Shown: positions 2,045 through 47,090, counted from the first letter of the stretch. The stretch: DNA of 64,000 bases from Bacteroidales bacterium (GCA_963682005.1 OY820914.1:3908145-3972144), one strand, 5' to 3'. Notes: generated by a model not told the origin, from the letters alone. Numbers and translations: made by a program.

Positions 2045-3319
2045 TTATTCTTTTTCGTTGTTTACTTTTTTTCCGAAACTTTCGTTGACGAGGTCGCGGC
2101 GACGGGGGGCATAGGTGCCATCTTCAAGTTCCCGCTGCATCACTGTGCTTAACATATTGAACATCTTCTGGGTCTGCGGTTCATCTTTATAAAAGGTATC
2201 CCAGGCATAATGAAAGAGTTCTTCCAGCTTTTCCGCGGTCATGTGTTTTGGATGATACACGACTTTCCCGGCATTGTAATGATCCCAGTCATGGTCAAAG
2301 ATCCTGTTTTGCTTCCGCAGGTCTGCATAGGCCTTAGTATGAGGGAAAGGTGCAAGAACCGTGAATTCGGCGAGATCGAGGTCGATTTCAAGCAGGAAAT
2401 CGATCAGGCGGCGGATATCATCTTCTGTCTGGTTATCAAGCCCGAGAAGTATTGTTCCTTCCACGGCGATTCCGTAGTCATGGTATTGTTTGATGCGGTT
2501 CCGTATAAAATCCGACGTATCGAATACTGCCTGGTAAACATACCATGCACCTGCTTGAGCAGCGAGATCCAGCACTTCAGGCTTGTCTTCAATGGTATGG
2601 CTGACCCATTTCTTCTTCAGCGGGATCATCGCCCGGAAAAGTTCTTTCTCCCACTCCGTATCCAGGGCCAGGGAGTTGTCAACGATGAACAGCCGGTTAT
2701 TATCCATCTGTGACAGTTCCTCAACGACCCTGTCGATGGGTCTTGGACGGAATCCGCGTCCTCCAAGATAACGTACAGCACACGGATAGCAATCGTATAT
2801 GCAGCCACGGGAAGCATGGAACAGGTCGACCATCCTGAATCCCTTGTGGTAATAAAGATCTTTCTTCAGGATATCCCTTCTGGCAGGGCCGATCAGTGAC
2901 ATTTCCGGAGGATTGTTCAGGAAGTTATAGATTTTCTGAAGGTTTCCCGCCTGAAAATCTTTAAAAACCTTGTCGAGCCGTCCTTCCACTTCTCCAAGGA
3001 ATACGGAGTCAGCATGAAGAAGCGTCTCCTCAGCATGAAGCATCGTAGAAATCCCTCCGAATATCACTTTTTTCCCAAGGTTCCTGTACATATCAGCAAT
3101 CGCCCAACCGCGTTTCACCTGGGTGGTAAGCATCATGGAAATCCCCACGAGATCCGGTGAATCGTCAACAATAAGCTCTTCTACATTTTCGTCCGTAAAA
3201 TCGACTTCCACATTTTCAGGCAGAGCAGCTGCCATTACCACCGGTCCATGAGGTGGAAGATTAAAGATGGTTTGTCCTTCCAGTTTTTCCCAACGCGGGT
3301 ATATCAGTTTAAATTTCAT
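2045..3319 (-). CDS. B12-binding domain-containing radical SAM protein (rSAM-1)
   Basis: CxxxCxxC motif in SRGCIYDCYPC, preceded by a B12-binding-like Rossmann segment (PDLVGISMM...VIFGG). The probable start is MKFKLIYPRW at 3319, giving a TAATG 1-nt overlap with the upstream stop; the track ORF extends to 3352. Confidence 0.8.
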   Translation of the reverse strand: MKFKLIYPRWEKLEGQTIFNLPPHGPVVMAAALPENVEVDFTDENVEELIVDDSPDLVGISMMLTTQVKRGWAIADMYRNLGKKVIFGGISTMLHAEETLLHADSVFLGEVEGRLDKVFKDFQAGNLQKIYNFLNNPPEMSLIGPARRDILKKDLYYHKGFRMVDLFHASRGCIYDCYPCAVRYLGGRGFRPRPIDRVVEELSQMDNNRLFIVDNSLALDTEWEKELFRAMIPLKKKWVSHTIEDKPEVLDLAAQAGAWYVYQAVFDTSDFIRNRIKQYHDYGIAVEGTILLGLDNQTEDDIRRLIDFLLEIDLDLAEFTVLAPFPHTKAYADLRKQNRIFDHDWDHYNAGKVVYHPKHMTAEKLEELFHYAWDTFYKDEPQTQKMFNMLSTVMQRELEDGTYAPRRRDLVNESFGKKVNNEKE

Positions 3320-5031: not shown

Positions 5032-6532
5032 TCTTTATCTTTTTAAGAAGATACTCTAACCCGATCAATTCACTGCATGTCTGAACTGCACCGATCGTAA
5101 CGCCAAGTACCCCGTGAAGATTGGTGTTCTGCCCCGTAAAAAAGAGTCCCGGGATCTTTGTTCTCGGAAGAACGATTGTTTCCAACGGATGATTGAAATC
5201 CTTCTGAATGCCATACATCGAACCTTCAGGGGTTCCTGTATAATCGCGCCAGGTAAGGGGAGAGGCTGCATCAATGCTTTTTAAGCATGCCCTGATACCT
5301 GGGAATTTATGTTCAACAAGATCCAGGAGTAGTTCCGTTTTCTTTTCCTTCCATTCATTATAGGACCGGCCCCTGCTTCCAACAATCGTTTTATCCCATG
5401 TCCTGACCTCGTTGAAGTCCATGTATGTCATTATTATGGCTGACTTTGCATATTCATTCATTCCTGAGTATGCTGGAGTATGAAGCATATAAAAGGAAGG
5501 CCAGATCCGGGCTGACCGGGCTGACCAGACATCATAACTTGTATGAAAATAGAAATTGTGATCAAGGTTTTTAAAACTGTTCTCTTTAAAAACAAGATAT
5601 AATGAGAAGGATGAGATGGTGTTCCCGAAATTTATCATTCTCCCTGACCAGGACTTTCTTACAGGGATCCCGTCGAACATGCTGATGGTGGCCGAAGGAT
5701 GGATATCCGAGATCAGGCGTTCTGCCTGGAAATTCAGACCGTCTCTGGTTATGGCTGTGAAAGTATCGTTCCCGAACCTGATCTTTGAAACTTCTTGTTT
5801 TGTAAGAAGCTGTCCGCCGTTTGATAAGATCTGATTTACCAATATCGTGGCCATCCTGTTACTTCCATCAACAGGACGCCATGCACCGGAGATAAATGAA
5901 TGATTGACCAGAGCGGCGATGTAGAGGGGTGTTTTATCACGTTCTCCTGCGTAAAGGAAATTGTTGCCGGCAAGGACGGATGAAAGGTGGCCCCTCTCCC
6001 CGGCCCCCTCCCCAAAAAGGGAGGGGGAATTAAGGTTCTGGTAGTATTTGAGGGCGGATTGATCTTTATATTGATTTTCTGAGTGGTTTCCAGGGATCTC
6101 AAGGTTATACAGCGGAAATGATCTGCTTATCTCCTGCAATTTATTTGTATAGGATCGCAATGATCCTTCCTGGTCAGGAAAGAAGGGGAGAAGTTGCTCT
6201 GTGAAGTTGTCAAATCCCATTGCAATGGGGTATTCAATATCATTGAATGAGATGACGTCAAATCCGTCAGGGTTCATTCGCCTGAACAATTCTTTGCCGG
6301 TAAGGCCAAAATAGCTGAAATACCTGTGAAGTACCTCGCCTTCATCCAATCCGCCAATATAGTGGACACCGGTATCGAACTCAACACCGTTTCGAATGAA
6401 CGTCTGCAGACACCCGCCTGGTTGGTGATGTTTCTCAAGGATGCAAACACTCATTCCTTCCCTGCTCAGGATGGCACCGCATAGCAATCCTCCCAATCCG
6501 CTACCGATTATGATAACATCGGATTTCATCAT
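5024..6532 (-). CDS. FAD-dependent oxidoreductase, phytoene desaturase (CrtI)-like
   Basis: 502 aa with an N-terminal dinucleotide-binding motif (VIIIGSGLGGLLCGAILS...EKHHQPGG). It has an ATGA overlap with the upstream gene and an 8-nt overlap with the downstream gene. Confidence 0.75.
   Translation of the reverse strand: MMKSDVIIIGSGLGGLLCGAILSREGMSVCILEKHHQPGGCLQTFIRNGVEFDTGVHYIGGLDEGEVLHRYFSYFGLTGKELFRRMNPDGFDVISFNDIEYPIAMGFDNFTEQLLPFFPDQEGSLRSYTNKLQEISRSFPLYNLEIPGNHSENQYKDQSALKYYQNLNSPSLFGEGAGERGHLSSVLAGNNFLYAGERDKTPLYIAALVNHSFISGAWRPVDGSNRMATILVNQILSNGGQLLTKQEVSKIRFGNDTFTAITRDGLNFQAERLISDIHPSATISMFDGIPVRKSWSGRMINFGNTISSFSLYLVFKENSFKNLDHNFYFHTSYDVWSARSARIWPSFYMLHTPAYSGMNEYAKSAIIMTYMDFNEVRTWDKTIVGSRGRSYNEWKEKKTELLLDLVEHKFPGIRACLKSIDAASPLTWRDYTGTPEGSMYGIQKDFNHPLETIVLPRTKIPGLFFTGQNTNLHGVLGVTIGAVQTCSELIGLEYLLKKIKND
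5991..6032. repeat. REP-like G/C hairpin element lying in frame inside the CrtI-like CDS
   Basis: Reads cccctctccccggccccctccccaaaaagggagggggaatt. There is a 9-bp stem (6004-6012 pairs with 6019-6027) and a 6-nt loop. It encodes SPSLFGEGAGERGH on the minus strand and resembles the inner hairpin of the 19181-19243 element. Confidence 0.65.
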
Positions 6533-9500
6533 GGACGGATAATTATAAGAATGTTGGACGTCAGTTTATTGTCGTCGATCACTTCAATATTCAGGTTAAA
6601 TTCATCAACAACCCTCCTGATCATTTCCTGGGAAGTGAAATAGAGTGACCCGGAATCCTCAATTGTTTTGTTGAATCCCGACCTGGTAGAAAAGAATTCG
6701 GTCAGCCGGGTACCTGCATGGCGTTCCTTCTTTGACTGATCTGCATCACGGATGATGATCACCCCATTCTTCTTCAGATTGGTCATACAGGATCGCAACA
6801 GCTTTTCCTGTTCCGGTTCAGGAAGGTAATGCAGAATATCAGACATCAGGAAAGCGTCTTGTGAAATGACAGGATATTTGGTGATATCACAGGAAATAAA
6901 CGTGATCCGGTCATTCTTCGCATAACAATTATTTGCAACAGCAATTTTCTCCGGATCATAGTCAATTGCGGTGATCATACGGTCTTTGGAGGTAAAAGCC
7001 AGGATGTATGAGATGTAACCGTAACCACATCCGATATCGAGAATATCACCTTTTCGCGGCATGAGTGAATCAATGACACGATAATTCTTTTCCAGCCTCA
7101 TCTTGATCTTTACGTACCATTCAAGAACCGGCCCTTTAAAGATGTAATTCAGAGCGATCATTCTTCTGTAATAATCCGGTGTTCCCATCTCTGATCTGAA
7201 TTCATCATAGAGATGTATATAATGTTGCCGCCAGCCTCTTGTTTTCTCAGATACAGTGGTTCCAAAACGGGTATCATCCCAGGCCACCCTCGGTTGTATC
7301 TTCATGTACAACCCATTGGGCTTTCCCCAGAAAACCCCCCGGGGAAGGAAATCGCCTGAGCCAAAGACCACGATAGGTAATATATCCACCTTCAGTTTTT
7401 CCGAAAGATAGAAGGCGCCACGATGAAACCTCCTGATATTATGGTCATCCGAACGATGTCCTTCAGGAAAGATCAGGATCGAATAACCATCCGCCACAAT
7501 GTCCTTCAGTTTATCCATAATTGCATCGATCCCTTCATCAGCATTGAAATAACTTGCCATCCTTGCGATCGGACCAAATACAGGTGACTTATAGACCCAT
7601 GCCGTGGTCAGGATGATGATCTTCGGATACAACCTGAGGAATGCAGGAGTTTCGATAAGAGACTGGTGATTGCTGATAATGATAGCCGGTTTTACAAAGT
7701 CTTCACCCAGTGGATTCAGGAGCTTTCGTTCTATCGGGAAAGTAAATGCTATGTATGCTCTACAGAGCATTGAAAAGGTCTTGTGGAAAATGTATTGCTT
7801 GCGTTTCTTCGGGACAGGTAACAAAATGAAGATCAGCGAACCGAAGATAACCATGATGACAGAGATCAAAACGATATTTCCCCATGTGACAAAGGTTTTA
7901 ACGACGATCCGGGCGGTGATGGGAAAGATGCCCTGGCGTTGCCTGTCAAGAAGGAAAAGATTCATCAGCCATGGTTGGATCGTAAATGAAATGACCACAA
8001 CAGAAGTTATTCCTACAACGGAAATCAGCGCGATTGAATTCAGTGCGGGATGACGCGCAAAAAACAAGGCTCCAACCCCGATTAGCGTTGTAATGGCGGA
8101 GAGGAAGATGGATGTTTTATAGGTTGTGAGCTCAGAAAGGCCATATTTTGAATTATGGAGAAGTCCGCGCATCATGAGGATGCTGTAATCCACCCCAAGG
8201 CCAAAAATGAAGGAGGAGATAATGATGTTGATGATATTGAAACGGATATCAAATGCTCCCATAAAACCCAGCGTGATCACCCAGCTGAGGAACATTGGCA
8301 GAGCTGCGATAAGGCCTAACTCAATCCTTCCGAAGGACAAAATGAGCAGCAACGATACAAAGATCATGGAAAGCCTCACCAGGAGATCAAAATCATGCCT
8401 GACATTTTCAACAAGACGATCGGAGATGAGTTGCCTGTCGAACACAACAAGGTTCGGATGACCGGAAAATGCGCTGCTGACCAGTTCCTTTTTTTCCCCG
8501 GGGACTTTGATAATCGTGGAGATCATGGTCATTTCGGGGGTTTCATTGATCCACTCGGCCAGGAATCTTATTTTAACCCTGTTAGTCTCCTGAACATTCA
8601 TGGGACTGAATTTCCTGTAAAGAAGATCCATCACCGGGTTGAATGCGGATTCCCTGAATTTGTATTTTTTTCCCGTTTCAATCAGCCGCTTCCGGAGGTT
8701 GTCTTTTCGCTCAGGAGTCCAGAATTGCTCCCAACGGTTCAATCGTTTAGCTTGAACAGAATCCGATGGAAGCATGAGGCCAACGGCGGATTGTTGAACC
8801 AGGAATTTCCCGTCATTGACCGATCGGACATAAAACTCATTCTTTTCATGGTTTTTCAAAACGGAGGCCAAATCTTTCCCTGTGGAAACAAGGTAAACAT
8901 TTTTCATCGAGGCATTGTTGAGCCTGTCGAGGTTTCTCTCTCCCTTTCGCAATTCATCCGTCATGTAATTGATGGACATCATATTTTTCTCAAATCCGGT
9001 TTTCCGTATCAGGAATAATCCACCTGCAGTGAGAAGAAGAATAATCGTGATCAGGCCATACTTTTTTTCAAAGTGAACAGACACAATACTATTAATGATC
9101 TCTGTCCTCCCGGGATTGTCTGAGAAATCCCTTTTGTCAAGGAAGTGAGGGAGAAGCACAAGGGCAAAGAATGCGGCCCCTGCAACGCTTAAGCTGGCAA
9201 ACCATCCCAGGTCATGCAGAACGCCGGATTTCAGAAAGACAAGACAAATGAATGCTGCAGCAGATGTCAGGAAACAGAGGAAAATCGTAAGCGACATTTC
9301 TTCGAGGGTGGCTTCAATATCATGCGTCTTCCTGAAATGATTAATAATATAAAGTGCATAATCCACGATCAGACCCAGGATCACCGTGCCGATCCCGAGA
9401 GCGATGGCGGATATTGTTCCTTTGGTGATATACATAATTGACAAGGCAAATGCACCGCCGAAAAGAGCCGGCAGGAATCCCAGCAAAGGGTATTTAATGC

Positions 9501-10380
9501 TCTTGAAATACCAGGCAAGGAGCAGGATGATAAGCCCGATGGAAATTGAAAACGTGATGGTAATATCCTTTTTTAACCGGTCCGCATTCGCTGATGCAAC
9601 GGCAATGCTTCCAAAATATTCACCTTTGACCTGCCCGTTCGACTCTTCGGACATCGTGCTGAGGATTGAACCGACACCTTTGATCAATTTCCCGTTCCGT
9701 TTCGACTCGCTTGCGGGATTTGCTGAGGTGATGAATATCAGCAGGTTTTTCCGGTCACTGGTCATGATGTATCCGTCTTCGATCACGAAATTATCACCCG
9801 ATGCAAGAGTTCTCATTTTCTGCAATGGGATCATCGTAAATCCAAGCGGATCCTTAACAAGGACATTTTTTAGTGCAAAACTCGCCGGAGAAACAAGCAT
9901 CCTGTAATTGTTACGCATCGTTTTCTCAATGGAATCGGGCAAGAGCGATTTTTCAATCTGCCGATAATCTTCATCGGTTAAATAAATGGGAAGATGATCA
10001 TAAAAAAAGTTGAAATAATAAGCCATCAATGTATCAGGGATGGCGCCGGTCACAGATTTAATGGTCGAGGAATCAAACGCGGAGGATAATTTACCGGTAA
10101 AACTGGCTGCAGCATCTATCAAACGGCGGGGGTCGGCAGGTGCATTGGTATCAGCCTGGTAGAGGCGAACGACAAGCTTATCAAAAAATTTAAAATGATG
10201 CACGACATATTCAAAGTGATCATGATTACCATTACTGATCCTCTCCCCTGAAATATTCTCCTCAAACGTGATCCGTGATGCAAGAATGATCATTCCGGCC
10301 AGAAGCGAGATGCAAAAGACAAGGAATGTAATCCTGTGCCTTTTGAAAAACCTGTATACCCGGATGAAAAAATTTGACAT
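6529..10380 (-). CDS. three-domain fusion: MMPL/RND-type membrane exporter + PlsC-type acyltransferase + SAM-dependent methyltransferase
   Basis: 1283 aa. Residues ~1-810 contain two multi-TM bundles typical of MMPL. Residues ~860-1060 carry acyltransferase motifs (SNHQSLIETP and FPEGHRS). Residues ~1090-1283 carry methyltransferase motif I (ILDIGCGYGYISYILA). Confidence 0.75.
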   Translation of the reverse strand: MSNFFIRVYRFFKRHRITFLVFCISLLAGMIILASRITFEENISGERISNGNHDHFEYVVHHFKFFDKLVVRLYQADTNAPADPRRLIDAAASFTGKLSSAFDSSTIKSVTGAIPDTLMAYYFNFFYDHLPIYLTDEDYRQIEKSLLPDSIEKTMRNNYRMLVSPASFALKNVLVKDPLGFTMIPLQKMRTLASGDNFVIEDGYIMTSDRKNLLIFITSANPASESKRNGKLIKGVGSILSTMSEESNGQVKGEYFGSIAVASANADRLKKDITITFSISIGLIILLLAWYFKSIKYPLLGFLPALFGGAFALSIMYITKGTISAIALGIGTVILGLIVDYALYIINHFRKTHDIEATLEEMSLTIFLCFLTSAAAFICLVFLKSGVLHDLGWFASLSVAGAAFFALVLLPHFLDKRDFSDNPGRTEIINSIVSVHFEKKYGLITIILLLTAGGLFLIRKTGFEKNMMSINYMTDELRKGERNLDRLNNASMKNVYLVSTGKDLASVLKNHEKNEFYVRSVNDGKFLVQQSAVGLMLPSDSVQAKRLNRWEQFWTPERKDNLRKRLIETGKKYKFRESAFNPVMDLLYRKFSPMNVQETNRVKIRFLAEWINETPEMTMISTIIKVPGEKKELVSSAFSGHPNLVVFDRQLISDRLVENVRHDFDLLVRLSMIFVSLLLILSFGRIELGLIAALPMFLSWVITLGFMGAFDIRFNIINIIISSFIFGLGVDYSILMMRGLLHNSKYGLSELTTYKTSIFLSAITTLIGVGALFFARHPALNSIALISVVGITSVVVISFTIQPWLMNLFLLDRQRQGIFPITARIVVKTFVTWGNIVLISVIMVIFGSLIFILLPVPKKRKQYIFHKTFSMLCRAYIAFTFPIERKLLNPLGEDFVKPAIIISNHQSLIETPAFLRLYPKIIILTTAWVYKSPVFGPIARMASYFNADEGIDAIMDKLKDIVADGYSILIFPEGHRSDDHNIRRFHRGAFYLSEKLKVDILPIVVFGSGDFLPRGVFWGKPNGLYMKIQPRVAWDDTRFGTTVSEKTRGWRQHYIHLYDEFRSEMGTPDYYRRMIALNYIFKGPVLEWYVKIKMRLEKNYRVIDSLMPRKGDILDIGCGYGYISYILAFTSKDRMITAIDYDPEKIAVANNCYAKNDRITFISCDITKYPVISQDAFLMSDILHYLPEPEQEKLLRSCMTNLKKNGVIIIRDADQSKKERHAGTRLTEFFSTRSGFNKTIEDSGSLYFTSQEMIRRVVDEFNLNIEVIDDNKLTSNILIIIRP

Positions 10381-10390
10381 GCAGATCTGT

Positions 10391-11608
10391 TTACTTTATG
10401 GATCCTGATTGTTCCTGAGCCGTGACGTTATGTTTTTTCCTGAAAATTGTGAGTAAAATGTATGAAGCCGTTCCGCCTGCAGTTGCAAGGCAGATACCGA
10501 AAAAAGCACTGCCGATAAGGTATTGCAGAAGATTTTCCTTCACCCAGTGCATTGAAAAGCCGGGGTTATACTGAACCTCCGGGCCATGGGACCCAAGTAA
10601 AAATCCGCCAAAAATATAACTCAGAAAAAGAATCACCGGCAACAAAGGAGGAATGCTTATGTTCGATGCAGCAATCGTCACGAATTTATTTAATTTGAAG
10701 AGATGAGCTGTGCCAAATGCAATCATCATCTGCCATCCCCAGACAGGTGTGACCCCGATAAACAATCCGATGGCCACTGAAAAAGCAAGCCGCATATTCG
10801 AATCTTTGCTCTCGAGGACATGATCCCGGATGAATTGCCTGATCGATTTCTTCCGGATCTCTTTTAAGAATTGGACAGGTCTTACCCATAGAAGCGCTAT
10901 AAAAACCAGAAGTGTGTTCAGGATGCTTATCCTTGTGAAATCCCGGAATTTCCGGAAATGGGAGACCCGTTCATCTTTTGGTGCATAGTAGACATTGACA
11001 GGCAAGGCCAGTATTCTGATCCCTTTCCAGGCAGCCCTGACAAGCACTTCCACCTCGAACTCGAATTTCCTGGTATAAAATTTAACGTCTTTCAACAGGG
11101 CTATCGGGTATAAACGGTAACCTGACTGAACATCCGGGATCTTCAATCCTGTTTCAACCTTGTACCAGAAGATGGAGAACTTGTGCCCGAAACTGCTGGT
11201 TCCCGGAACATCGGACTGATCCATATTCCTTGCACCCACGATAAGAGAATCGGGGTCCTTTTCAATCCAGTCGATGAATGCAGGAAGATCAGCCGGAAAA
11301 TGCTGGCCATCCGAATCGATGGTGATCGCATAGCGAAATCCTTTTTTTACCGCAAAGCTGAATGCATTGCGAAGGGCCATTCCCTTTCCCATGTTTTCAG
11401 GATGTGTGAGGATATGGAGGCGCCTGAATTTTTCGAGAATTACGGGCGTATTGTCGGTGGAGCCGTCATTGACAATGATGATATCGTTCGTATAGTTTTC
11501 CACATCCCGAATGACCATTTCCAGCGTTTTGTCATTATTATAGGTTGGAATGATGACACAACACTTCTGTTCCGAGAATTTTTTTCTGATCCCTGTAAAA
11601 TCGTGCAT
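10391..11608 (-). CDS. family 2 glycosyltransferase fused to a C-terminal membrane (DUF2062-like) domain
   Basis: GT2 signature CCVIIPTYNNDKTL...IIIVNDGSTDNT...ITIDSDGQH, followed by hydrophobic C-terminal helices. I trimmed the start to MHDFTG (ATG at 11608); the 542-aa track ORF reads through an intergenic tandem repeat. Confidence 0.75.
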   Translation of the reverse strand: MHDFTGIRKKFSEQKCCVIIPTYNNDKTLEMVIRDVENYTNDIIIVNDGSTDNTPVILEKFRRLHILTHPENMGKGMALRNAFSFAVKKGFRYAITIDSDGQHFPADLPAFIDWIEKDPDSLIVGARNMDQSDVPGTSSFGHKFSIFWYKVETGLKIPDVQSGYRLYPIALLKDVKFYTRKFEFEVEVLVRAAWKGIRILALPVNVYYAPKDERVSHFRKFRDFTRISILNTLLVFIALLWVRPVQFLKEIRKKSIRQFIRDHVLESKDSNMRLAFSVAIGLFIGVTPVWGWQMMIAFGTAHLFKLNKFVTIAASNISIPPLLPVILFLSYIFGGFLLGSHGPEVQYNPGFSMHWVKENLLQYLIGSAFFGICLATAGGTASYILLTIFRKKHNVTAQEQSGSIK

Positions 11609-11639
11609 TTCAGAAGTTGGAGGATGATATGAATGAAGA

Positions 11640-11647
11640 CAAAAGTA
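11640..11647 (-). promoter_or_regulatory. candidate Bacteroidetes -7 box (TActTTTG) for the GT2 operon
   Basis: The minus strand reads TACTTTTG, matching TAnnTTTG. It lies 32 nt upstream of the ATG at 11608, and only a near-match -33 (TTTC) lies 17 nt further upstream. Confidence 0.3.
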
Positions 11648-11678
11648 CGAATTTTCTGCTAATGGAAAGTGAAGAGAA

Positions 11679-11712: not shown

Positions 11713-11830
11713 GTATAATATTTTGGCAAGTTAACGATATTTGTTTTTGGACACACACAAATCCCAATACCCGAAACACACACAACCAGCATCCAGCTTC
11801 GCCAATTAAGATTATTAGTATTTTTGCCGG

Positions 11831-13171
11831 GTGAAGATCCTCCTGATAAACCCGCCGCGTTCGCCGGAAAACAATATCCTGAAATTCGCCCCGGAGGCGG
11901 CAAAACAATTTATCCATAAGAAACTGATCGGTCCCCCGCTGGGATTGCTCACCATTGCTGCTGCTGTAAAAGATCATGATGTAACAGTCTTTGATTCGAA
12001 AGGGGAGTATGATCTTCATCCGGATGGACCTTCCCTGGAATTACTGGTGAAAGGACTTCTGGAAAAGCACAAACCAGATATCGTCGGAGTGACGATCATC
12101 ACCTCTGAGTTTGATCTTTCGCTTGAGATTTTTCGTGTTGTAAAAGAATATGACCCGGGGATTCTCACGGTAGCCGGGGGATTGCATGCCACACTCTGCC
12201 CGAAGGATTTTGCGGAGACACCCGTGGATGTGACAATCCCCGGCCAGTGCGCCCACATTTTCAGAGAGGTTGTCATTACGGCTGAAAGCAAAAAGGATCT
12301 TGCAATGGTGCCGGGGATTCTTCTTAATACAGATAATGGCTTTACAAAAACAAATGGAACTGCAAGGCCGTTTGATCATTCCGATGCCGGCTTCCTGAAA
12401 ATTGACAGGCGTTTCCTGGATAAGTGGATCGGCACATACAAAGTCGGGAACAGCCCTTTTCCTTCCACGTATGTTTACACTTCCCTGGGTTGTCCTTATA
12501 AATGTACATTCTGCTCGATCTGGACACAGTTTAAAGGAAAATATTATCAGCGTGATGTGGAGAGTCTCATCGAAGAGCTGAAATCGATCGATGAATACCC
12601 GGTTGTGCGGTTTGCAGATGCCAATACAGTGGTTGACTTTGATTTCATGAACCTCCTGTTCGACCGGATCGTTGAGGAAGGGATCAAAAAGACTTTTATC
12701 ATGGATATCCGTGCCGATGTGGTGGTTCAGCAACCTGCGCTCATCGAGAAATTCGCAAAGGCCGGATTGAAAGTCGTGATCTGCGGGTTTGAATCGTTCC
12801 GGGACAGTGAACTGAAAAAATACAATAAGTCATCACCGGCAAGGTATAACCAGGAAGCCATCGGCATCTTTGAGAAGAATGGCATCTTGGTCCGGGGAAA
12901 TTATGTGATACCGAATGATTACACCGCGGATGACTTTAAGGCACTGGCTGACTATTCCGCTGCGAACCCCGTGGTATATGCAGGATATACAATTTTAACA
13001 CCCATGCCGGGAACGGTCTATTATAACCAGGTCAGGCACCAGATCGTGGATCACGATTACCGGAAATACAATTTTTTTAATTCCGTGATGAAGACCGTAA
13101 TCCCGCATGATGAGTTTCATGAAATGGTCGGGGGACTTTGGCTGATCAAGAAAGGGAAAGACGTTATATAA
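11831..13171 (+). CDS. B12-binding domain-containing radical SAM protein (rSAM-2)
   Basis: 446 aa with a GTG start (MKILLINPP). It has a B12-binding-like N-terminus (PDIVGVTII) and CxxxCxxC in SLGCPYKCTFCSIW. Confidence 0.8.
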   Translation: MKILLINPPRSPENNILKFAPEAAKQFIHKKLIGPPLGLLTIAAAVKDHDVTVFDSKGEYDLHPDGPSLELLVKGLLEKHKPDIVGVTIITSEFDLSLEIFRVVKEYDPGILTVAGGLHATLCPKDFAETPVDVTIPGQCAHIFREVVITAESKKDLAMVPGILLNTDNGFTKTNGTARPFDHSDAGFLKIDRRFLDKWIGTYKVGNSPFPSTYVYTSLGCPYKCTFCSIWTQFKGKYYQRDVESLIEELKSIDEYPVVRFADANTVVDFDFMNLLFDRIVEEGIKKTFIMDIRADVVVQQPALIEKFAKAGLKVVICGFESFRDSELKKYNKSSPARYNQEAIGIFEKNGILVRGNYVIPNDYTADDFKALADYSAANPVVYAGYTILTPMPGTVYYNQVRHQIVDHDYRKYNFFNSVMKTVIPHDEFHEMVGGLWLIKKGKDVI

Positions 13172-13172
13172 T

Positions 13173-40239: not shown

Positions 40240-40680
40240 CTAATTCTTGATTAAAAATATTCTTAATTCACATTCCGCAAGGATGCGATCTTCTGAAGTA
40301 ACCTTTGCGGAAACAATGGTGGCGTCAAAAACCTCGTTTGTGACAACTGTTTCTGTCAGCAATTTGTCCCCGGATTTGGGCAGTTCATGGATCCGGAGAT
40401 TTTTGATCCCTCCGATAAAACCTAGCTGTGGCTCCCTTTTTTCCAGGTCGGCAGCATAACCTGCTCCGGCAGCTGCTGTCTGGGCCATATTCTCGATCAG
40501 CCCGGGTTCGCGTAATCTGCCTTTTTCAAAGAAAATATTGTTTTCTCTGACAGTCATGGAAGTCACCGTCAGCTTGCCTTCGACCCGTACAAGCTCATCA
40601 ATCATAACCATCGGATCCCGTTGGGGAATAAAACGGTCCATATCACTTCTTTCAGCGATTACCTTTTCAAATGATGCCAT
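40240..40680 (-). CDS. hotdog-fold dehydratase-like protein
   Basis: 146 aa with IPQRDPMVMIDELV...EPGLIENMAQTAAAG...GFIGGIKNLRI, as in the FabZ-like dehydratases of aryl-polyene clusters. Confidence 0.6.
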   Translation of the reverse strand: MASFEKVIAERSDMDRFIPQRDPMVMIDELVRVEGKLTVTSMTVRENNIFFEKGRLREPGLIENMAQTAAAGAGYAADLEKREPQLGFIGGIKNLRIHELPKSGDKLLTETVVTNEVFDATIVSAKVTSEDRILAECELRIFLIKN

Positions 40681-42026
40681 AATGATCCTTTTCTGTTTCG
40701 TTTTCGCATCCTGTTCATGGCTGTAACAACATCCTCGTCAGGGAATACCCATCTGCGACCAGTCGCATCTGCCCGTTCCTTAAGGGTTTTGTAATCAATT
40801 CCTTTGGCAAGGTAATAGGCAGGCTCAAGTAAGTCATCACCAGGAGTGATAACCCCTTCTTCCGAAGCCAGGTCAAAAAGTCTTGTCCCGGGATAGATCC
40901 TCATCCCGATGTATGGAAAAAATACCGTGTTCTCAAACTTTTTGGAGTTCTCAAATCCTTCATTGACCGAATCTTCTGTCTCACCATATCCGCCAAGGAT
41001 AAGGAAATGAGAGTAATAGATCCCAACTTTGTTGCACAGATCGGAGACTTCCAGAACTTCTTCCATGGTAAAATGCTTCCCGTAATGCTTTAACGTTGAA
41101 TCGGAAAGGGATTCCGTGCCGAATTCAATATGTGTCAGTCCAGCAGCGAAGAACAGCCGGAGTGTCTCTTCATCCAGGTCATGCGGTGAAAAATAGGCGC
41201 CCCATTTGATCTGCAGGCCTCTTGAAATCATCTTCTCTGCAAGCTCCTGGTTGAATTTCTTGTTGATGTTGAAAACCGAGTCCGTGAAAAATACATGGTC
41301 GATATTTTTCTTAAAATAGAGTTCAGCCAGCGTATCAATGATTTTATCCGGATCAAGCGTTCTCACTTTTGTTCCTTCGATCACAGGATAGGTGCAGTAA
41401 ATGCATTTATGCGGACATCCCCGTTTGGTCTGAACATTCATCATTCCGCTCTTATTCCAGTAAAAGTCGATGAGACTTTTCTCAAAGTTAAGATCAAGTT
41501 GTTTCAGGAATGTTTTTCTGGGATTCAGGATGATCTCCTGGCCGTTGCTGTAAACAAGGCCCTGAATGTGCGTATAGTCTTCCTTTCTGATCAGGCAGGT
41601 AATTAGCTTTGACAGGCTTTCCTCGCCCTCTCCATAGATTCCGAAATCGGGCTGAAGGTACCCGAACAGTTTTTTCGGAAAAATGGAGAATGCCGAACCA
41701 CCTATAATGAGCGTTGTTTGAACAGTGCTCCTGACGGTATCCATGATCTTCTTATAATCATGGATGAATATGTTCCTGGACATGGAATCCACATCATCAA
41801 TATTCCGGAAGGAGATCCCCGTAAAATCAGGGGACCATGAGGTAAGCACGTCCCTGAATGAAGCGTTGGATTCAAGATTAAAGTCAAAGATCCTGATCTC
41901 AAGATCCGGCATCGAGGAAGAAAGATAGGAGTGAAGATAGGAAATACCTAACGGGTAAACCGGGTATGGAACAGCAAATTTGTTAGCTGAGACAAGCAGA
42001 AGTTTATATTTCCTATCTGATTTCAC
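40659..42026 (-). CDS. B12-binding domain-containing radical SAM protein (rSAM-5), paralog of rSAM-3
   Basis: 455 aa with PDFTGISFRNIDD and QTKRGCPHKCIYCTYP (CxxxCxxC). Confidence 0.8.
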   Translation of the reverse strand: MKSDRKYKLLLVSANKFAVPYPVYPLGISYLHSYLSSSMPDLEIRIFDFNLESNASFRDVLTSWSPDFTGISFRNIDDVDSMSRNIFIHDYKKIMDTVRSTVQTTLIIGGSAFSIFPKKLFGYLQPDFGIYGEGEESLSKLITCLIRKEDYTHIQGLVYSNGQEIILNPRKTFLKQLDLNFEKSLIDFYWNKSGMMNVQTKRGCPHKCIYCTYPVIEGTKVRTLDPDKIIDTLAELYFKKNIDHVFFTDSVFNINKKFNQELAEKMISRGLQIKWGAYFSPHDLDEETLRLFFAAGLTHIEFGTESLSDSTLKHYGKHFTMEEVLEVSDLCNKVGIYYSHFLILGGYGETEDSVNEGFENSKKFENTVFFPYIGMRIYPGTRLFDLASEEGVITPGDDLLEPAYYLAKGIDYKTLKERADATGRRWVFPDEDVVTAMNRMRKRNRKGSLWHHLKR

Positions 42027-42934
42027 TTGGTTTGATTTTGAGTTGATGCAGGTTTCTGCCAGAAATCATAATAGTTATACCACTGAAGCGGATATTTCTT
42101 TACGATCCTTTCAAATGCTTTTGCATATTCGGTGACCGCTTCCCTCAGATATAATTCGCGTTTTTTCAGGTTCCCTGAAAACGGGACGGTCATTAACGGA
42201 GTCGCATAAAAATGATAGTGCGTCCGGGTGTCCTTAACAGCAAAAACATATGAGACCGGTACGTTGAAATGTGCAGCCATGTTAACAGGACCAACCGGGA
42301 ACGGAGCTGATTTCCCAAGGAAATCAACCATGATTGTTTTGTTCCCTTCGATGAACCTGTCGCCATGCATGGCAATGATCTCCCCCTTTTCCAATGCGTT
42401 CCTGATATCATTCAGATGAGAGAAATCTTCACGTATGATGATGAAATTGACGCTTCTCTTGACCAGTACATCTGACAGAAATCCTTTGATCTGCTGGTGC
42501 TCTGCATCAAAAAGGATGATGTTGATCCGTTTCTCAAGCCGGTTGAGCAGTTGCCCGGCGATTTCCCAGTTCCCGATATGGCCGCTGATCAGGAATCCAC
42601 CCTTGTCGATCTGCCTTAAGTATTCCTCGCCTTCAAAATCAAATGTAAACTTATTCTGAAACCCGGCGAGCATCGCGATCTTGTCAATCAGTACCTGGCC
42701 AAAGTTGAAGTAATTCCGATAAACGCTGGCAAATGAAGCAATAGGACTCCTTTTAATCATCCTCCGGTAAAACTGATATGAACTATTAAATGATTTCGGG
42801 GAAGAAACCATGAAATATGCAACTACGAAATAAAGGAGGAAATAAGCGAAAGGGATACCTGGATACCGGATTATCCAGATAAAGATTTTATATCCAATGA
42901 CACCGCCGCGGGTTTTTCCTTTCCATGAGGACAT
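42023..42934 (-). CDS. LpxL/HtrB-type lysophospholipid (lipid A late) acyltransferase family protein
   Basis: 303 aa with an N-terminal TM helix and the HxxxxE-type motif ISGHIGNWEIAG, typical of LpxL-like acyltransferases. Confidence 0.7.
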   Translation of the reverse strand: MSSWKGKTRGGVIGYKIFIWIIRYPGIPFAYFLLYFVVAYFMVSSPKSFNSSYQFYRRMIKRSPIASFASVYRNYFNFGQVLIDKIAMLAGFQNKFTFDFEGEEYLRQIDKGGFLISGHIGNWEIAGQLLNRLEKRINIILFDAEHQQIKGFLSDVLVKRSVNFIIIREDFSHLNDIRNALEKGEIIAMHGDRFIEGNKTIMVDFLGKSAPFPVGPVNMAAHFNVPVSYVFAVKDTRTHYHFYATPLMTVPFSGNLKKRELYLREAVTEYAKAFERIVKKYPLQWYNYYDFWQKPASTQNQTK

Positions 42935-42940: not shown

Positions 42941-43213
42941 TTAGCTTGGATAGATTTTGTGAATGATAAACTGGTGAAAATCCCCCAGGGTCCTGATCTC
43001 ACCCATCTCTTCGGCCTTCATTTTGAAACCGAAATTCTTTTCAATGATCACAAACAGGTCGACAAAATCAAGACTGTCAATCCCGAGGTCTTTTTTCAAT
43101 TCGGCAGCAGGAAGTAATTCATTTTCCTCGATCTCGATCTCGTCGATCAGGAGTTGATTGATTTTCCTGATTATTTCGTCATTTTGCATAAATGCTGTCG
43201 TTTGAATGAGCAA
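42941..43213 (-). CDS. acyl carrier protein
   Basis: Motif DLGIDSLDFVDLFV. The true start may be the internal ATG at 43189 (MQNDEIIRK). Confidence 0.75.
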   Translation of the reverse strand: MLIQTTAFMQNDEIIRKINQLLIDEIEIEENELLPAAELKKDLGIDSLDFVDLFVIIEKNFGFKMKAEEMGEIRTLGDFHQFIIHKIYPS

Positions 43214-43446: not shown

Positions 43447-44664
43447 TCAGACTTTCCGGATGATCAGCGATGAGTTCGTTCCGCCGAAACCGAAGGAATT
43501 GGAAAGGAAAGCCCTGATATCGAAAAGAGTTGTTTCACGCGCGATATTAAGTTTTCCGGTGATCTCATCCGTATTTTCAAGGTTGATGTTCGGGGCGATA
43601 AATGAATTGTTCATCATCAGGGTGGAATAGACCACTTCGCTGGCGCCTCCCATCCACATTTCATGACCTGTCATCGATTTTGTGCTGCTGACCAGAGGTT
43701 TGGTCTGTCCGAAGACCTGGTAGATCGCCTGGGCTTCGTTACTGTCGCCGGAAGGGGTGGATGTGGCATGTGCATTCACATAATCGATCAGTGAAGGGTC
43801 AATGCCGGCATCTTTCAGCGACATGATCATGGCCCGTGCAGGACCGTCAACATTTGGAAGAGAAATATGTTCCCCATTTGAAGAGAATCCATAACCGATG
43901 ACTTCCCCATAAATATGAGCACCGCGTTTCATGGCTGATTCATAGCTTTCAAGAATCACTGTTGCAGCTCCGCCGCTGGGAACAAGGCCGTCGCGGTCGC
44001 GGTCGAATGGCCGTGATGCTTTTGTCGGTTCTGATTCACGGATGGAAAATGCATTCAGGGCATCAAAGCTGGCAGTCGCTTCCGGGTTGATCTCCTGCGC
44101 ACCGCCGCAGATGATCGTTTCCTGCAAGCCCTGGCGGATTAACAGGTAGCCAAGTCCGATGGCATGTGAACCGCTGGCACAGGCACCGCTGACAGTGAAA
44201 TTGACACCCTTCAGCTTGAATATGACAGACAAATTCATGGAAACAGTTGAATTCATCGACTGGAAAATATATCCCGACCCGATCATCATGCTGTCCTTTT
44301 TTGCACGAAGGATATCAACGGATTCAACAACCGGTAATGCAGAACTATCATTGCCGTAAATGATCCCTACTTCCCTGTTTTCAAGAAAGGACTCATCAAT
44401 AAAGGCAGTTTTCAGGGCTTCAACAGTGGAAACATAGGCATATTCACCCTGGACGGGCAGCCCGATCCGCATCCGGCGGTCGAGGATCCCTTTCAATACA
44501 GGTTTTTCCACCATTCCGGTAAGTGCCGAGCGAAATCCCATCTCTTTCCTCACCGGGTCAAAAATTATCCCCGATCTTCCTTCGTACAATGATTTTTTAA
44601 CATCCTCAAGATTTTTTCCAAGGACAGAATAGATACCCATTCCTGTGATAACGACGCGATTCAT
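43447..44664 (-). CDS. beta-ketoacyl-ACP synthase (KS-A, FabB/F-like)
   Basis: 405 aa with SGACASGSHAIGLG, NAHATSTPSGD, MTGHEMWMGG and NSFGFGGTNSSLII. Confidence 0.9.
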   Translation of the reverse strand: MNRVVITGMGIYSVLGKNLEDVKKSLYEGRSGIIFDPVRKEMGFRSALTGMVEKPVLKGILDRRMRIGLPVQGEYAYVSTVEALKTAFIDESFLENREVGIIYGNDSSALPVVESVDILRAKKDSMMIGSGYIFQSMNSTVSMNLSVIFKLKGVNFTVSGACASGSHAIGLGYLLIRQGLQETIICGGAQEINPEATASFDALNAFSIRESEPTKASRPFDRDRDGLVPSGGAATVILESYESAMKRGAHIYGEVIGYGFSSNGEHISLPNVDGPARAMIMSLKDAGIDPSLIDYVNAHATSTPSGDSNEAQAIYQVFGQTKPLVSSTKSMTGHEMWMGGASEVVYSTLMMNNSFIAPNINLENTDEITGKLNIARETTLFDIRAFLSNSFGFGGTNSSLIIRKV

Positions 44665-44736: not shown

Positions 44737-44767
44737 ATTCGTAATTCGTAATTCGTAATTCGTAATT
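44737..44767. repeat. tandem heptamer array ATTCGTA x ~4.4
   Basis: Reads attcgtaattcgtaattcgtaattcgtaatt and runs into the FabG stop codon at 44766-44768. Confidence 0.9.
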
Positions 44768-45494
44768 AAGTGTAGAGCCCTCCATTAACACTTATGACAG
44801 TCCCGGTGATATAAGACGCTTTTTCCGATGCCAGAAATCCGACAACTTCGGCAACTTCTGCCGGTTCACCGAACCTGTTCATAGGTATCATGGCTTTAAG
44901 TTCTTTCTCATTCAATCCTTCTGTCATATCGGTCCTGATAAAACCTGGTGCAACGGCATTTACAGTGACATTCTTTTTTGCCACTTCCTGGGCCATTGCT
45001 TTGGTGGCCCCGATCACCCCTGCCTTAGCGGCAGAATAATTGGCCTGACCCGGCAATCCCTTCAATCCCGATAACGAAACCACATTGATGATCCTTCCGA
45101 ACCTGGCAAGCAGCATATCTTTGATCAGCAAGCGGGTTGTGTAAAGAAAACTGTTGAGGTTCGTATTGATCACATCAAACCATTCCTCATCTTTCATCCA
45201 CATGACCAGTGCATCCTTCCGGATCCCTGCATTGTTCACGAGTATGGAGATCGATTTTCCTTCATTCCGTGCAATCCAGCCATTGATGGCGGTTTCCACT
45301 TCATCCTTCTTTGAAACATCGAACATGAGCAATTCCCCATCACTTCCAAGTTCACGGACCATTTCAAGCGTTTTCATTGCTTCATCCTGTCCTGAACGGA
45401 AATTGATCAGGATGTGATACCCCATTTCTGCAAGCTTTATACTGATGGCCCGGCCAATCCCCCTTGAACCTCCTGTCACAAGTGCGTATTTCAT
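44766..45494 (-). CDS. fabG: 3-oxoacyl-ACP reductase (SDR, FabG-type)
   Basis: 242 aa with TGGSRGIGRAI, NNAG, catalytic YSAAKAG and PGFIRTDM. Confidence 0.9.
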   Translation of the reverse strand: MKYALVTGGSRGIGRAISIKLAEMGYHILINFRSGQDEAMKTLEMVRELGSDGELLMFDVSKKDEVETAINGWIARNEGKSISILVNNAGIRKDALVMWMKDEEWFDVINTNLNSFLYTTRLLIKDMLLARFGRIINVVSLSGLKGLPGQANYSAAKAGVIGATKAMAQEVAKKNVTVNAVAPGFIRTDMTEGLNEKELKAMIPMNRFGEPAEVAEVVGFLASEKASYITGTVISVNGGLYT

Positions 45495-45536: not shown

Positions 45537-47090
45537 TTACTCTTCGATCGAGAATTGCGGCTTATTCTCCATAATATATAGCTCGATATTCCGGATATCC
45601 TTGTATTTGATCGAATCTTCGGTGAATTTGGGTACGATCTTCCTGAGATCATCGTATTTGCTCAGCGAATAGGTTGAAAGACGATCCTTGATATTAAGGT
45701 AGTCGATAGCCTGAAGGATCGAGATCATTTCGATGGCAAGCACCTGGTAGGTATTGTCGATGATCTTCTTCGCCAGCAGGGCCGCGTTGGTCCCCATGCT
45801 GACAATATCCTGGTTATCGTTATTGTTTGTGATACTATGGATATACATCGGGAAAGAAAGGGTCTGATTCTCAGCCACAGTTGAAACGGCCGTGAACTGA
45901 ACTCCCTGCATTCCGAGGTTAAGTCCGAGTTTGCCCAGGTTTACGAACGGGGGCAGCTTCTCATTCAGCTTCGGGTTCATCAGGTAATTGAGCTGCCTTT
46001 CTGCAAGCATTGACAGCTTGGTTATCGCGATCTTGAGTTTATCCATTTCCAGCGCAACATAATCCCCGTGGAAATTGCCCCCGTGATATACATTGTGATG
46101 TTCACCATCGATGATCGGGTTGTCGCTGGTAGAATTCACTTCATTCATCAGCACATGGGTGGTGTAGAAGATCGTGTCGAGCACCGGACCGAGAACTTGT
46201 GGAACACAGCGGAGTGAGTAATATTCTTGCACTTTATGCTTGAACACTTCCACATCCACTGTATTATCGTTGTTGTAAAGGTGATCAGCTCTCCGGCGGA
46301 TCAGATGACTGTCTTTCAGGATAAATTTCATCGTCCTTGCCACCTGCCGCTGACCATGATGTGACTTGGCCCTGTTTAGCCCGTCGGAGAAATGGTCGTC
46401 GTAAGATTCAACGATCTCTGTGATCATCGAAGATGCAAGCGTAGACCAGTCAAGAAGGTTACGGGCATGAATGGTATTGATCATCCCGATGCCTGTCATG
46501 GCCGAGGTTCCGTTGATCAGCCCAAGCCCTTCACGGATATGCATTTTGATCGGGACAAGGCCCGTTTCTGCAAATACTTCATTGGTTGGCCGGAGCTCTC
46601 CGTTGTATGTCACTTCTCCCTCCCCGATAAGATTTAAAGCCAGGTGTGCAAGCTGCACCAGATCACCACTTGCACCTACACCGCCATGTTCGGGGATGTA
46701 AGGATAGATGTCGCGGTTGATCATCTCTTTAAGCAGTTCAACCACTTCCGGGTGGATCCCGGATTTGGCCTGCACAAGTGTGTTCAGCCGGGCAAGCATG
46801 GTAGCTTTGGCATAAATATCCGGAAGGGGGCTGCCGCATCCGGCTGCATGACTGCGGATCAGGTTGTATTGTAATTCAAGCTCCTTGTTATTGTTGATCT
46901 TGAACTGGGCCATAGGTCCCAGTCCGGTATTGATCCCATAGATAACTTTCCCTTTTGCAAATTCTTTCAGGAATTCAAAATCCTCTGAAACTTTCCTACG
47001 GGCTTCTATATCGATATCAACTTTCTCGCCTTCAAATAATATCTTAAAAAAATCTCCTACAGTTAGTTTTCTGTTTCCAATAAGTATCAT
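45537..47090 (-). CDS. aromatic amino acid ammonia-lyase (MIO-dependent; HAL/TAL family, flexirubin-type TAL-like)
   Basis: 517 aa with the MIO-forming ASG in GGVGASGDLVQLAHL. Also present are YGINTGLGPMA, QEYYSLRCVPQVLGP and NQDIVSMG. From memory the overall sequence resembles the Flavobacterium tyrosine ammonia-lyase. Confidence 0.9.
   Translation of the reverse strand: MILIGNRKLTVGDFFKILFEGEKVDIDIEARRKVSEDFEFLKEFAKGKVIYGINTGLGPMAQFKINNNKELELQYNLIRSHAAGCGSPLPDIYAKATMLARLNTLVQAKSGIHPEVVELLKEMINRDIYPYIPEHGGVGASGDLVQLAHLALNLIGEGEVTYNGELRPTNEVFAETGLVPIKMHIREGLGLINGTSAMTGIGMINTIHARNLLDWSTLASSMITEIVESYDDHFSDGLNRAKSHHGQRQVARTMKFILKDSHLIRRRADHLYNNDNTVDVEVFKHKVQEYYSLRCVPQVLGPVLDTIFYTTHVLMNEVNSTSDNPIIDGEHHNVYHGGNFHGDYVALEMDKLKIAITKLSMLAERQLNYLMNPKLNEKLPPFVNLGKLGLNLGMQGVQFTAVSTVAENQTLSFPMYIHSITNNNDNQDIVSMGTNAALLAKKIIDNTYQVLAIEMISILQAIDYLNIKDRLSTYSLSKYDDLRKIVPKFTEDSIKYKDIRNIELYIMENKPQFSIEE

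Follow-up and report, generated by a model that had tools for sequence, protein, structure and literature searches.

A flexirubin-type gene cluster carrying five B12-binding radical SAM enzymes in a Bacteroidales genome, a candidate source of a modified polyene lipid

What does a flexirubin-type gene cluster do with five B12-binding radical S-adenosylmethionine (rSAM) enzymes? This question is raised by a stretch of 64,000 nucleotides (nt) from a Bacteroidales bacterium (GCA_963682005.1, OY820914.1:3908145-3972144), which we call the window and to which coordinates refer unless a locus is named. Its genes were mapped from a listing of open reading frames (ORFs) and by Pfam and NCBIfam profile scans, and every gene class that a sequence-only reading had listed there was found at or near the place where that reading had put it. 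We find that positions 1605-47090 are a flexirubin-type aryl-polyene cluster that is real, intact and widely conserved, and that the five rSAM genes, a small partner of one of them and a 13-gene insert are integral, co-inherited parts of it. This flexirubin/aryl-polyene variant is new; nothing comparable has been characterised. The cluster probably makes a modified polyene lipid without oxygen.

The flexirubin/aryl-polyene assignment, already made in the sequence-only reading, is borne out by six NCBIfam flexirubin models that pass their cut-offs. The cluster's first gene (45537..47090; minus strand, as are all cluster genes except two rSAM genes) encodes the tyrosine ammonia-lyase (TAL) FlxA, an enzyme of the 4-methylideneimidazole-5-one type with ASG at residue 140, which scores 836.6 bits on FlxA_rubin_TAL (NF053541; cut-off 700) and matches Pfam Lyase_aromatic with an E value of 5e-163. 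The other five models identify the short-chain dehydrogenase/reductase-type ketoreductase FlxB (44766..45494; FlxB_rubin_SDR, 389 bits, cut-off 340), LolA2 in the place of FlxQ (26183-26887; LolA2_flexi, 216.7 bits, cut-off 125), LolB2 in the place of FlxR (25564-26220; LolB2_flexi, 102.5 bits, cut-off 60), two copies of DarH (38788-39789 and 37212-38228; DarH_acyl scores of 418.4 and 399.7 bits, cut-off 300) and two of DarG (39812-40225 and 38244-38645; DarG_fam scores of 119.1 and 126.9 bits, cut-off 70). On the narrower flexirubin_DarG model the score is ~123 bits, below the threshold of 170. The genes stand in the same order as flxA-flxW in Chitinophaga pinensis and as Fjoh_1076-1109 (of Fjoh_1074-1110) in Flavobacterium johnsoniae UW101, where the dar genes are embedded as they are here. 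The gene tables for these two clusters contain no radical SAM gene in either (Schoner et al. 2014, Tables S4 and S5, PMC3992019).

Both Pfam domains, B12-binding and Radical_SAM, were detected in all five rSAM proteins, each of which has exactly one intact CxxxCxxC motif (C184 in rSAM1, C221 in rSAM2, C200 in rSAM3, C181 in rSAM4 and C204 in rSAM5). Two of the domain scores are sub-threshold, that of rSAM5 for B12-binding (27.7 bits, cut-off 32.1) and that of rSAM1 for Radical_SAM (28.9 bits, cut-off 29.5). Pairwise comparison divides the five into three families: 1) rSAM5 and rSAM3 (33% identity, E 1e-64), 2) rSAM1 and rSAM4 (27% identity, E 4e-47), and 3) rSAM2 alone.

The gene for rSAM5 (40659..42026; CPHKCIYC at residue 204) lies between the FlxE and FlxF positions. 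Its product matches model positions 1-441 of 443 of TIGR04072 with 423.8 bits (cut-off 360), a family described as 'lipid biosynthesis B12-binding/radical SAM protein', which is the name that the sequence-only reading had given, and whose NCBI model is called rSAM_ladder_B12. The next-best families are BzaD (192 bits) and TsrM (114.5 bits), and the best PDB match is TsrM (6wte, 94.9 bits). The rSAM5 gene overlaps that of an LpxL-type acyltransferase by 4 nt, and six homologues among the matches listed (P0026, P0029, P0033, P0056, P0088 and P0101) are fusions of LpxL and a TIGR04072-like B12-rSAM, about 758 amino acids (aa) long; a fusion gene of this kind is also present at positions 10001-12280 of the related locus L163. 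Overlap and fusion thus tie this B12-rSAM to the acyl-transfer step of an outer-membrane lipid pathway. TIGR04072 relatives are numerous: of 8000 candidates scored, 3681 are homologues at E <= 1e-20, and all those of the 120 listed for which a source is named come under Bacteroidota.

Its paralogue rSAM3 (13383..14810, plus strand) scores 319.3 bits on TIGR04072, under the cut-off, followed by BzaD (187 bits) and TsrM (134.3 bits); both rSAM5 and rSAM3 are far under the cut-offs of these last two families (450 and 500 bits). BzaD and TsrM catalyse C-methylation of aromatic sp2 carbons. The nearest relatives of rSAM2 (11831..13171, plus strand) are HpnR (136.6 bits), BchE (125.4 bits) and TokK (36 bits). 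In the remaining family, rSAM4 (20431..21975), which also has a DUF4070 domain in the Pfam scan, scores 113 bits on HpnJ and has AprD4 as its best PDB match (6fd2, 65.6 bits). AprD4 carries a B12-binding domain but is reported to have no need of cobalamin. The divergent rSAM1 (2045..3319; CIYDCYPC at residue 184; B12-binding, 36.1 bits), whose gene follows that of FlxW, is the best conserved of the five, with 70-90% identity in the 80 loci found by scanning metagenome contigs. A library clustered at 50% identity holds two full-length representatives of its orthologues, and the next relatives are at most 38% identical; judged from these sequences, the orthologues form a tight group.

Directly after rSAM1 comes an orphan gene for a 128-aa protein (1605..1991) with no Pfam or NCBIfam family, which moves the left end of the cluster to 1605 from the 2045 previously proposed. 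The same ORF comes after rSAM1 in 67 of the 69 related loci with room for it. The 257 homologues of this protein, nearly all of them 128 aa long among the matches listed, have 33 invariant columns, among them Cys27, E81-H82 and the motif E45-x-Y-R-Q-N-P-G-T. AF2 models the protein with confidence (pLDDT, a predicted local accuracy score, of 86), and the model has no significant fold match in the PDB. The protein may assist rSAM1 as a partner that binds cofactor or substrate.

A check proposed in the sequence-only reading, namely whether the rSAM genes co-occur with the ketosynthase (KS)/chain length factor (CLF) core across Bacteroidota, gave a positive answer. A scan with rSAM4, limited to one genome per species, returned 40 Bacteroidota loci at 57-77% identity, mostly labelled as Bacteroidales or Prolixibacteraceae metagenome-assembled genomes (MAGs), and in these ~40 species-level MAGs as in the 80 metagenome contigs the rSAM genes are co-conserved with the core, at times in shuffled order. 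In the rSAM4 loci the order KS-CLF-deacetylase-LolA-LolB2-dehydratase-insert-GT2-MMPL (GT2, family 2 glycosyltransferase) is kept. Among loci with room for it, the gene for a protein resembling beta-ketoacyl synthase III (KAS III), described below, adjoins rSAM4 in 32 out of 34; likewise, 28 out of 31 loci with room have rSAM2. The gene for rSAM3 occurs in 25 of 40. A C45 or CrtI-like gene precedes rSAM1 in 54 of 66 metagenome loci. The same gene order persists at 64% identity (L166/L167), and in the MAG GCA_026391805.1 a single contig (JAPLDJ010000012.1) holds the complete cluster, the five rSAM genes included. Rearranged versions also occur: two loci (L036 and L041) have the insert genes in another order, and in two others (L125 and L135) an operon from TAL to rSAM5 is divergent from a series running DarH, acyl carrier protein (ACP), rSAM1, its partner, ACP_a and FabD, with rSAM2 further on.

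Several observations concern single members of this set. In L012, L015, L028 and L040, rSAM2 directly follows the FabD-like gene and rSAM3 is absent, so rSAM3 is dispensable in some lineages. Homologues of rSAM4 at 58% identity in L033, L034 and L035 have no cluster neighbours within 10 kb and may be a related enzyme in another context; the sole Brocadiaceae locus fetched (L056) likewise has an rSAM1/4-family gene without cluster neighbours. A Desulfobacterales MAG has five genes in a row (L044, 9048-13421) for an LpxL-type acyltransferase, a B12-rSAM, LolA, a FabD-like and a FabA-like protein, the B12-rSAM being of the rSAM1/4 family (38% identity) and its gene overlapping the LpxL-type gene by 4 nt; this set may be a minimal version of the theme outside Bacteroidota.

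The gene array is unbroken from 47090 down to 1605. The sequence-only reading had described an almost continuous minus-strand run with gaps of 0-30 nt. Most genes are indeed on the minus strand; rSAM2 and rSAM3 form a divergent plus-strand unit, separated from the GT2 gene by a 222-nt divergent promoter region, and 25 of the 44 junctions are <=30 nt, the remainder measuring 31-233 nt and a single one 802 nt. In order from FlxB, the other core genes encode KS_e in the FlxC position (43447..44664; both ketoacyl-synt domains, N and C), ACP_c in the FlxD position (42941..43213; Pfam PP-binding, DSL motif), the LpxL-type acyltransferase of the lysophospholipid acyltransferase superfamily (LPLAT) in the FlxE position (42023..42934; Pfam Lip_A_acyltrans), and, past rSAM5, an ApeP-like/FabZ-like dehydratase in the FlxF position (40240..40680; ApeP-like in precomputed Pfam assignments, with a weak NCBIfam FabZ match). 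The two DarG/DarH pairs are followed by a DarI/DarJ-like ABC transporter pair, with the ATPase at 36457-37209 (ABC_tran) and the ABC-2 permease at 34958-36259 (ABC2_membrane_3). Beyond these are genes for a 4HBT thioesterase (FlxH, 34540-34956), KS_d (FlxI, 33354-34532), a short protein resembling the KS N-terminal domain (FlxL, 32657-33445) and ACP_b (FlxM, 32396-32653), all four assigned from Pfam and NCBIfam; two KS/CLF pairs, KS_c (31187-32392) with CLF_b (30103-31161) and KS_b (28811-30031) with CLF_a (27627-28700), for which the Pfam matches are ketoacyl-synt and Ketoacyl-synt_2; a NodB-type polysaccharide deacetylase (FlxP, 26835-27626, Pfam); and, after LolA2 and LolB2, a FabA/ApeI-like dehydratase (FlxS, 25099-25533, Pfam).

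On the far side of the insert the array resumes with the GT2 glycosyltransferase, which has a DUF2062 domain (FlxT, 10391..11608, Pfam). Its start was revised from 12019 to 11608, giving 405 aa, the length of its orthologue in L164. Next come FlxU, a fusion of MMPL exporter, PlsC-type acyltransferase and class I methyltransferase with the domain architecture of Cpin_1873 (6529..10380; Pfam MMPL, Acyltransferase and Methyltransf_25), the CrtI-like flavoenzyme FlxV (5024-6532; Amino_oxidase) and the C45/Ntn acyltransferase FlxW (3319-5031; Pfam AAT; C45_proenzyme, 207.9 bits, cut-off 85). The CrtI-like, C45/Ntn and BtrH-like proteins, which had been singled out as unusual, are thus FlxV, FlxW and DarH, all of them canonical members in their usual order. 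Sequence checks agreed with the earlier reading that the five rSAM ORFs are intact, that the ASG motif is present and that Cys-His-His is kept in all five ketosynthases, and no enoyl reductase was found. Each of the three ACPs has a DS(L/I) motif.

The insert (11831-25102) comprises 13 genes between the FlxS and FlxT positions, three of them for rSAM2, rSAM3 and rSAM4. The others encode a 4HBT thioesterase (24716-25102; 4HBT_2), two crotonases (23957-24712 and 23186-23863; ECH_1), the KAS III-like protein (22045..23196), a 3-hydroxyacyl-CoA dehydrogenase (19267-20334, Pfam), a secreted CxxCH haem protein (18657-19049, Pfam), the FabF-like KS_a (17408-18625; fabF, 467.6 bits; Cys-His-His), ACP_a (16303-16605, Pfam), a FabD-like acyltransferase (15374-16288; FabD, 132.9 bits) and a PNPOx-like flavoprotein (14881-15309, Pfam). 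The thioesterase and both crotonases are kept beside the KAS III-like gene in 32 loci, and the order from dehydrogenase to flavoprotein (14881-20334) is kept in 32-35.

The KAS III-like protein is the sole StlD/DarB relative in the window or any fetched locus. It is 70-84% identical in orthologous loci. Its best PDB match is StlD, over the full length (5gk0, E 2e-16), and identity to StlD/DarB is 21-25%; it scores 115.6 bits on the StlD/DarB subfamily model (cut-off 450). The sequence-only reading was right that the gene is there; however, its product shares only the catalytic Cys with condensing enzymes, for a triad alignment has Asn in place of His and Tyr in place of Asn in the window protein and four orthologues, whereas FabH and StlD both keep His and Asn. 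This sets it apart from canonical condensing enzymes, and on these residues it may transfer acyl groups rather than form rings. Identification as DarB was rejected, since the protein is below both NCBIfam cut-offs and the triad is not conserved. A further candidate, that crotonase pair, KS and KAS III-like protein form an HMG-type (3-hydroxy-3-methylglutaryl) beta-branching cassette, was weighed and left aside: HMG-CoA synthase models reach only 29-37 bits, and KS_a is a normal Cys-His-His FabF. The 802-nt junction noted above is a non-coding spacer between KS_a and ACP_a (16606-17407) that holds short direct repeats, with aaatgc several times and gtgaagagtgaaaa-like units; the same junction is only 50-300 nt in the orthologous loci looked at. 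An ORF within it (16773-17081, 102 aa) is probably spurious and was discarded as a gene, being of low complexity, with no family and no counterpart in orthologous loci.

Several genes of studied flexirubin clusters are missing from the window. The KAS III-like protein is the sole window candidate for DarB (89.3 bits, cut-off 550), and tblastn with StlD found no other StlD homologue in the window. In scans that had no DarA reference sequence or model hit, every cluster ORF of at least 200 aa fell in a family other than DarA. With tblastn, no match in the 64-kb window was found for the FlxJ methyltransferase (query from L139) or the coumarate-CoA ligase FlxY (queries from L085 and L154), and the window has no counterpart of the flavin halogenase FlxK or of FlxX. 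A FlxY-type CoA ligase is present beside rSAM1 in 33 of 80 related loci. In locus L139 the place that rSAM5 has in the window, right behind the LpxL-type gene, is taken by a gene for a FlxJ-family methyltransferase (619.7 bits, cut-off 560). Classical flexirubins have one methionine-derived ring methyl group, for which FlxJ is the presumed methyltransferase.

The reading that we prefer, at about even confidence and judging from gene content and similarity, is a flexirubin-type cluster in which O2-independent rSAM tailoring, mainly C-methylation, would be combined with a replacement route to the second lipid moiety. FlxA would convert tyrosine to 4-coumarate, from which KS/CLF pairs, FlxB and the ApeI/ApeP-like dehydratases would build an aryl polyene on ACPs, with no enoyl reduction. 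Coumarate priming, which had been proposed in the sequence-only reading, has the TAL as its sole basis, in a window with no FlxY-type CoA ligase. The LpxL-type, PlsC-type, DarH and C45 acyltransferases and the GT2 would join the aryl polyene to a lipid anchor, and the ABC pair, the MMPL fusion and LolA2/LolB2 would transport it to the outer membrane. By their nearness to BzaD/TsrM, rSAM5 and rSAM3 would C-methylate the aryl or polyene part, rSAM5 acting on the substrate or product of the coupled LpxL-type acyltransferase in place of the missing FlxJ. Nearness to HpnR, TokK and BchE suggests methylation of an unactivated carbon for rSAM2, while rSAM1 and rSAM4, nearest to AprD4/HpnJ, may carry out non-methylating radical chemistry (dehydration, dehydrogenation or rearrangement). 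Finally, KS_a, ACP_a, the FabD-like, crotonase, dehydrogenase and Cys-only StlD-like proteins may make the second moiety (an alkyl, phenolic or cyclohexanedione one), for which aerobes rely on DarA/DarB. This last step is a best guess that we hold loosely, made because the insert has the sole StlD/DarB relative, its own FabF, ACP and FabD, and enzymes for enoyl, 3-hydroxy and 3-keto thioesters.

A number of points weigh against this proposal. Apart from TIGR04072, no named rSAM family is matched at anything near its cut-off, so the reaction types are analogies, and non-methylases such as BchE, OxsB and AprD4 are also found among B12-rSAM enzymes. The loss of His and Asn from the KAS III-like protein weakens the idea that DarAB is replaced, a CoA ligase for activating coumarate is missing from the window, and the swap of FlxJ for rSAM5 rests on one locus and is a lead only. 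MAG names and sampling sites are the only basis for assuming a low-oxygen lifestyle; these sites, as read from record and sample names, appear to be mostly lakes, peat, sediments and digesters.

Among the alternatives we rank first one that is nonetheless unlikely, namely that two pathways lie side by side, the insert making a separate fatty-acid-derived lipid and either sharing export and attachment genes or merely being lodged in the cluster. The insert comes with a KS, an ACP and an acyltransferase of its own, travels as one block in L036 and L041, and is lacking in the more distant clusters in which rSAM1 and its partner are retained (70-73% identity in rSAM1) and the dehydratase leads directly to the GT2; the rSAM1 pair is therefore a widespread element and the insert a sub-lineage add-on. 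Moreover, in nine loci (L006, L008, L011-L013, L024 and L028-L030) no window gene, core genes included, was matched within the ~3.8-6.8 kb upstream of the FlxS-type dehydratase, with insert and GT2-MMPL following; the KS/CLF core may be elsewhere in those genomes. However, flexirubin-type genes accompanied the insert wherever it was seen: its place is always between the FlxS-type dehydratase and GT2-MMPL, or beside rSAM1 or ABC/LolA genes, and in L135 ACP_a, the FabD-like gene and rSAM2 are directly beside rSAM1 and the TAL operon.

Similarly improbable, and next in rank, is that the product is an ordinary flexirubin, an aryl polyene esterified to a dialkylresorcinol, made with different enzymes, the rSAMs standing in for O2-dependent or special steps such as the aromatisation of a cyclohexanedione by DarA or ring methylation; the product would then hold no new chemistry. 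In favour of this, the genes missing, with DarA judged from the family assignments above, are exactly DarA/DarB, FlxJ and the O2-dependent halogenase FlxK, while DarG, DarH and the DarI/DarJ-like ABC pair are retained. The relatives come from habitats that we take from record titles to be low in oxygen, and BchE offers a precedent for a B12-rSAM replacing an O2-dependent enzyme. Yet replacing three or four steps would call for far less than five rSAM genes and a 13-gene insert, the StlD-like protein has lost the His and Asn that StlD keeps, and there are simpler relatives with rSAM1 and its partner but no insert.

A less likely reading, to which we attach little weight, is radical C-C bond formation: the TIGR04072-type and rSAM1/4-type enzymes would be radical catalysts acting on ACP- or lipid-bound polyenoyl chains, with ring closure, cross-linking or iterative methyl branching as the outcome. 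Ring formation in particular, in which one or more rSAMs would form C-C bonds within or between polyene chains to give a cyclised or cross-linked lipid, as proposed for anammox ladderanes, appears more doubtful still. In its favour, rSAM5 passes the rSAM_ladder_B12 model, rSAM2 scores 125 bits on BchE, a ring-forming B12-rSAM, and the component list matches that of the anammox cluster (PMC10139942, PMC2649909), with every type of the set described in PMC10139942 (B12-rSAM, phytoene-dehydrogenase-like protein, FabF pair, ACP and FabZ) present in the window. However, the TIGR04072 family is widespread, with Bacteroidota among the listed homologues, whereas ladderanes are known only from anammox bacteria, and rSAM5 and rSAM3 have methylases as their closest characterised relatives. 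On sequence relationships we lean towards methylation over ladderane-type cyclisation.

That the rSAM genes are unrelated passengers or pseudogenes in a chance neighbourhood is hardly credible, for although an IS200-like fragment and a tRNA gene stand at the right border and an 802-nt spacer interrupts the insert, the five ORFs are full length with intact motifs, a fusion protein joins rSAM5 to a core enzyme, and identities of 57-90% with synteny across ~120 loci already refute it.

Some features of the borders should be recorded. Outside the TAL end are an IS200-like (Y1 transposase) fragment of 107 aa (47507-47830) and a tRNA-Arg(ACG) gene (48313-48387), followed by unrelated genes; fragment and tRNA gene may mark a rearrangement or insertion point. 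The tRNA gene was the only hit of an RNA search of the window, which thus found no cobalamin riboswitch. Further out (51697-62563) are genes for an M6-type peptidase, a 1108-aa sortilin/Vps10-repeat protein and an 844-aa protein with a C-terminal sorting domain of the type IX secretion system; this flank fits a Bacteroidota genome. On the left flank, a second 3-hydroxyacyl-CoA dehydrogenase gene (HCDH_a, 535-1500) is doubtful as a cluster member, as it is not kept beside the 128-aa gene in relatives and has next to it a minus-strand acetate kinase gene that begins near 500 and runs off the window edge. Relatives continue past the 128-aa gene with O-methyltransferase, ABC-2, DarG, DarH and ACP genes, in some cases a sulfotransferase gene, and FlxY, and because they extend further there the window cluster looks cut short on this side. 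The GCA_026391805.1 cluster has all of the first five, followed by a sulfotransferase (L164, 17129-18211) and an AMP-binding ligase. The sulfotransferase is a hint that some relatives may sulfate their product.

Hardly any case is known in which radical SAM enzymes modify fatty-acid or polyketide-type lipids, and here a well-understood flexirubin scaffold carries five such enzymes, one of them in a family that NCBI names after ladderanes. In some genomes fusion links rSAM5 to a core acyltransferase. The cluster offers a defined place to learn what TIGR04072-type enzymes do. It points to a probable new family of outer-membrane pigment-lipids in anaerobes, and would be a natural experiment in which an aerobic pathway has been rebuilt without its oxygen-dependent steps. 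Genome-mining surveys report 'ladderane' clusters in many non-anammox phyla without explanation, and clusters of the present type account for some of these 'ladderane' or 'arylpolyene' calls. The bearing on the ladderane question is plausible: ladderane enzymes resist expression and anammox bacteria are without genetics (PMC10139942), and if C-C bonds are indeed formed, a cultivable bacterium with a closed 5.27-Mb genome would serve as a model for the ladderane-like clusters of anammox bacteria and Deltaproteobacteria.

How does the cluster compare with known systems? Compared with C. pinensis (flxA-flxY and a dar cluster) and F. johnsoniae, it is without DarB, FlxJ, FlxK, FlxX and FlxY, shows no candidate for DarA, and adds rSAM5, the insert with its three rSAM genes, and rSAM1 with its 128-aa partner. 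The view that no characterised flexirubin or aryl polyene pathway uses rSAM tailoring held up in a literature search, which found no characterised aryl polyene cluster of this kind and no paper joining 'flexirubin' with 'radical SAM' or mentioning 'TIGR04072'; the combinations aryl polyene and radical SAM, arylpolyene and ladderane and resorcinol, and Prolixibacteraceae and flexirubin yielded nothing beyond genome-mining surveys or taxonomy. [quoted passage not shown] For rSAM5 and rSAM3, BzaD and TsrM are the best characterised relatives, and their genomic context differs.

Aryl polyene clusters of Gram-negative bacteria, reportedly the subject of work by Cimermancic et al. in 2014, share with the window type II KS/CLF pairs, ApeI-/ApeP-like dehydratases, an LPLAT acyltransferase, a GT2, a LolA-like carrier, an MMPL protein and the absence of an enoyl reductase. 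In those clusters the starter is 4-hydroxybenzoate, whereas in the window cluster a TAL would supply it. For ladderanes, candidate clusters have been proposed in anammox bacteria, and look-alikes occur in Desulfotalea, Geobacter and Pelobacter (Rattray et al. 2009, PMC2649909; Dietl et al. 2023, PMC10139942); for the anammox and the deltaproteobacterial clusters alike, the function is unproven. They have in common with the window a B12-rSAM, a flavoenzyme resembling phytoene dehydrogenase, divergent FabF pairs, an ACP and a dehydratase dedicated to the pathway, and a polysaccharide deacetylase. Unlike the anammox clusters, the one described here lies in a Bacteroidota genome and combines these genes with a TAL starter enzyme and a full Flx/Dar set.

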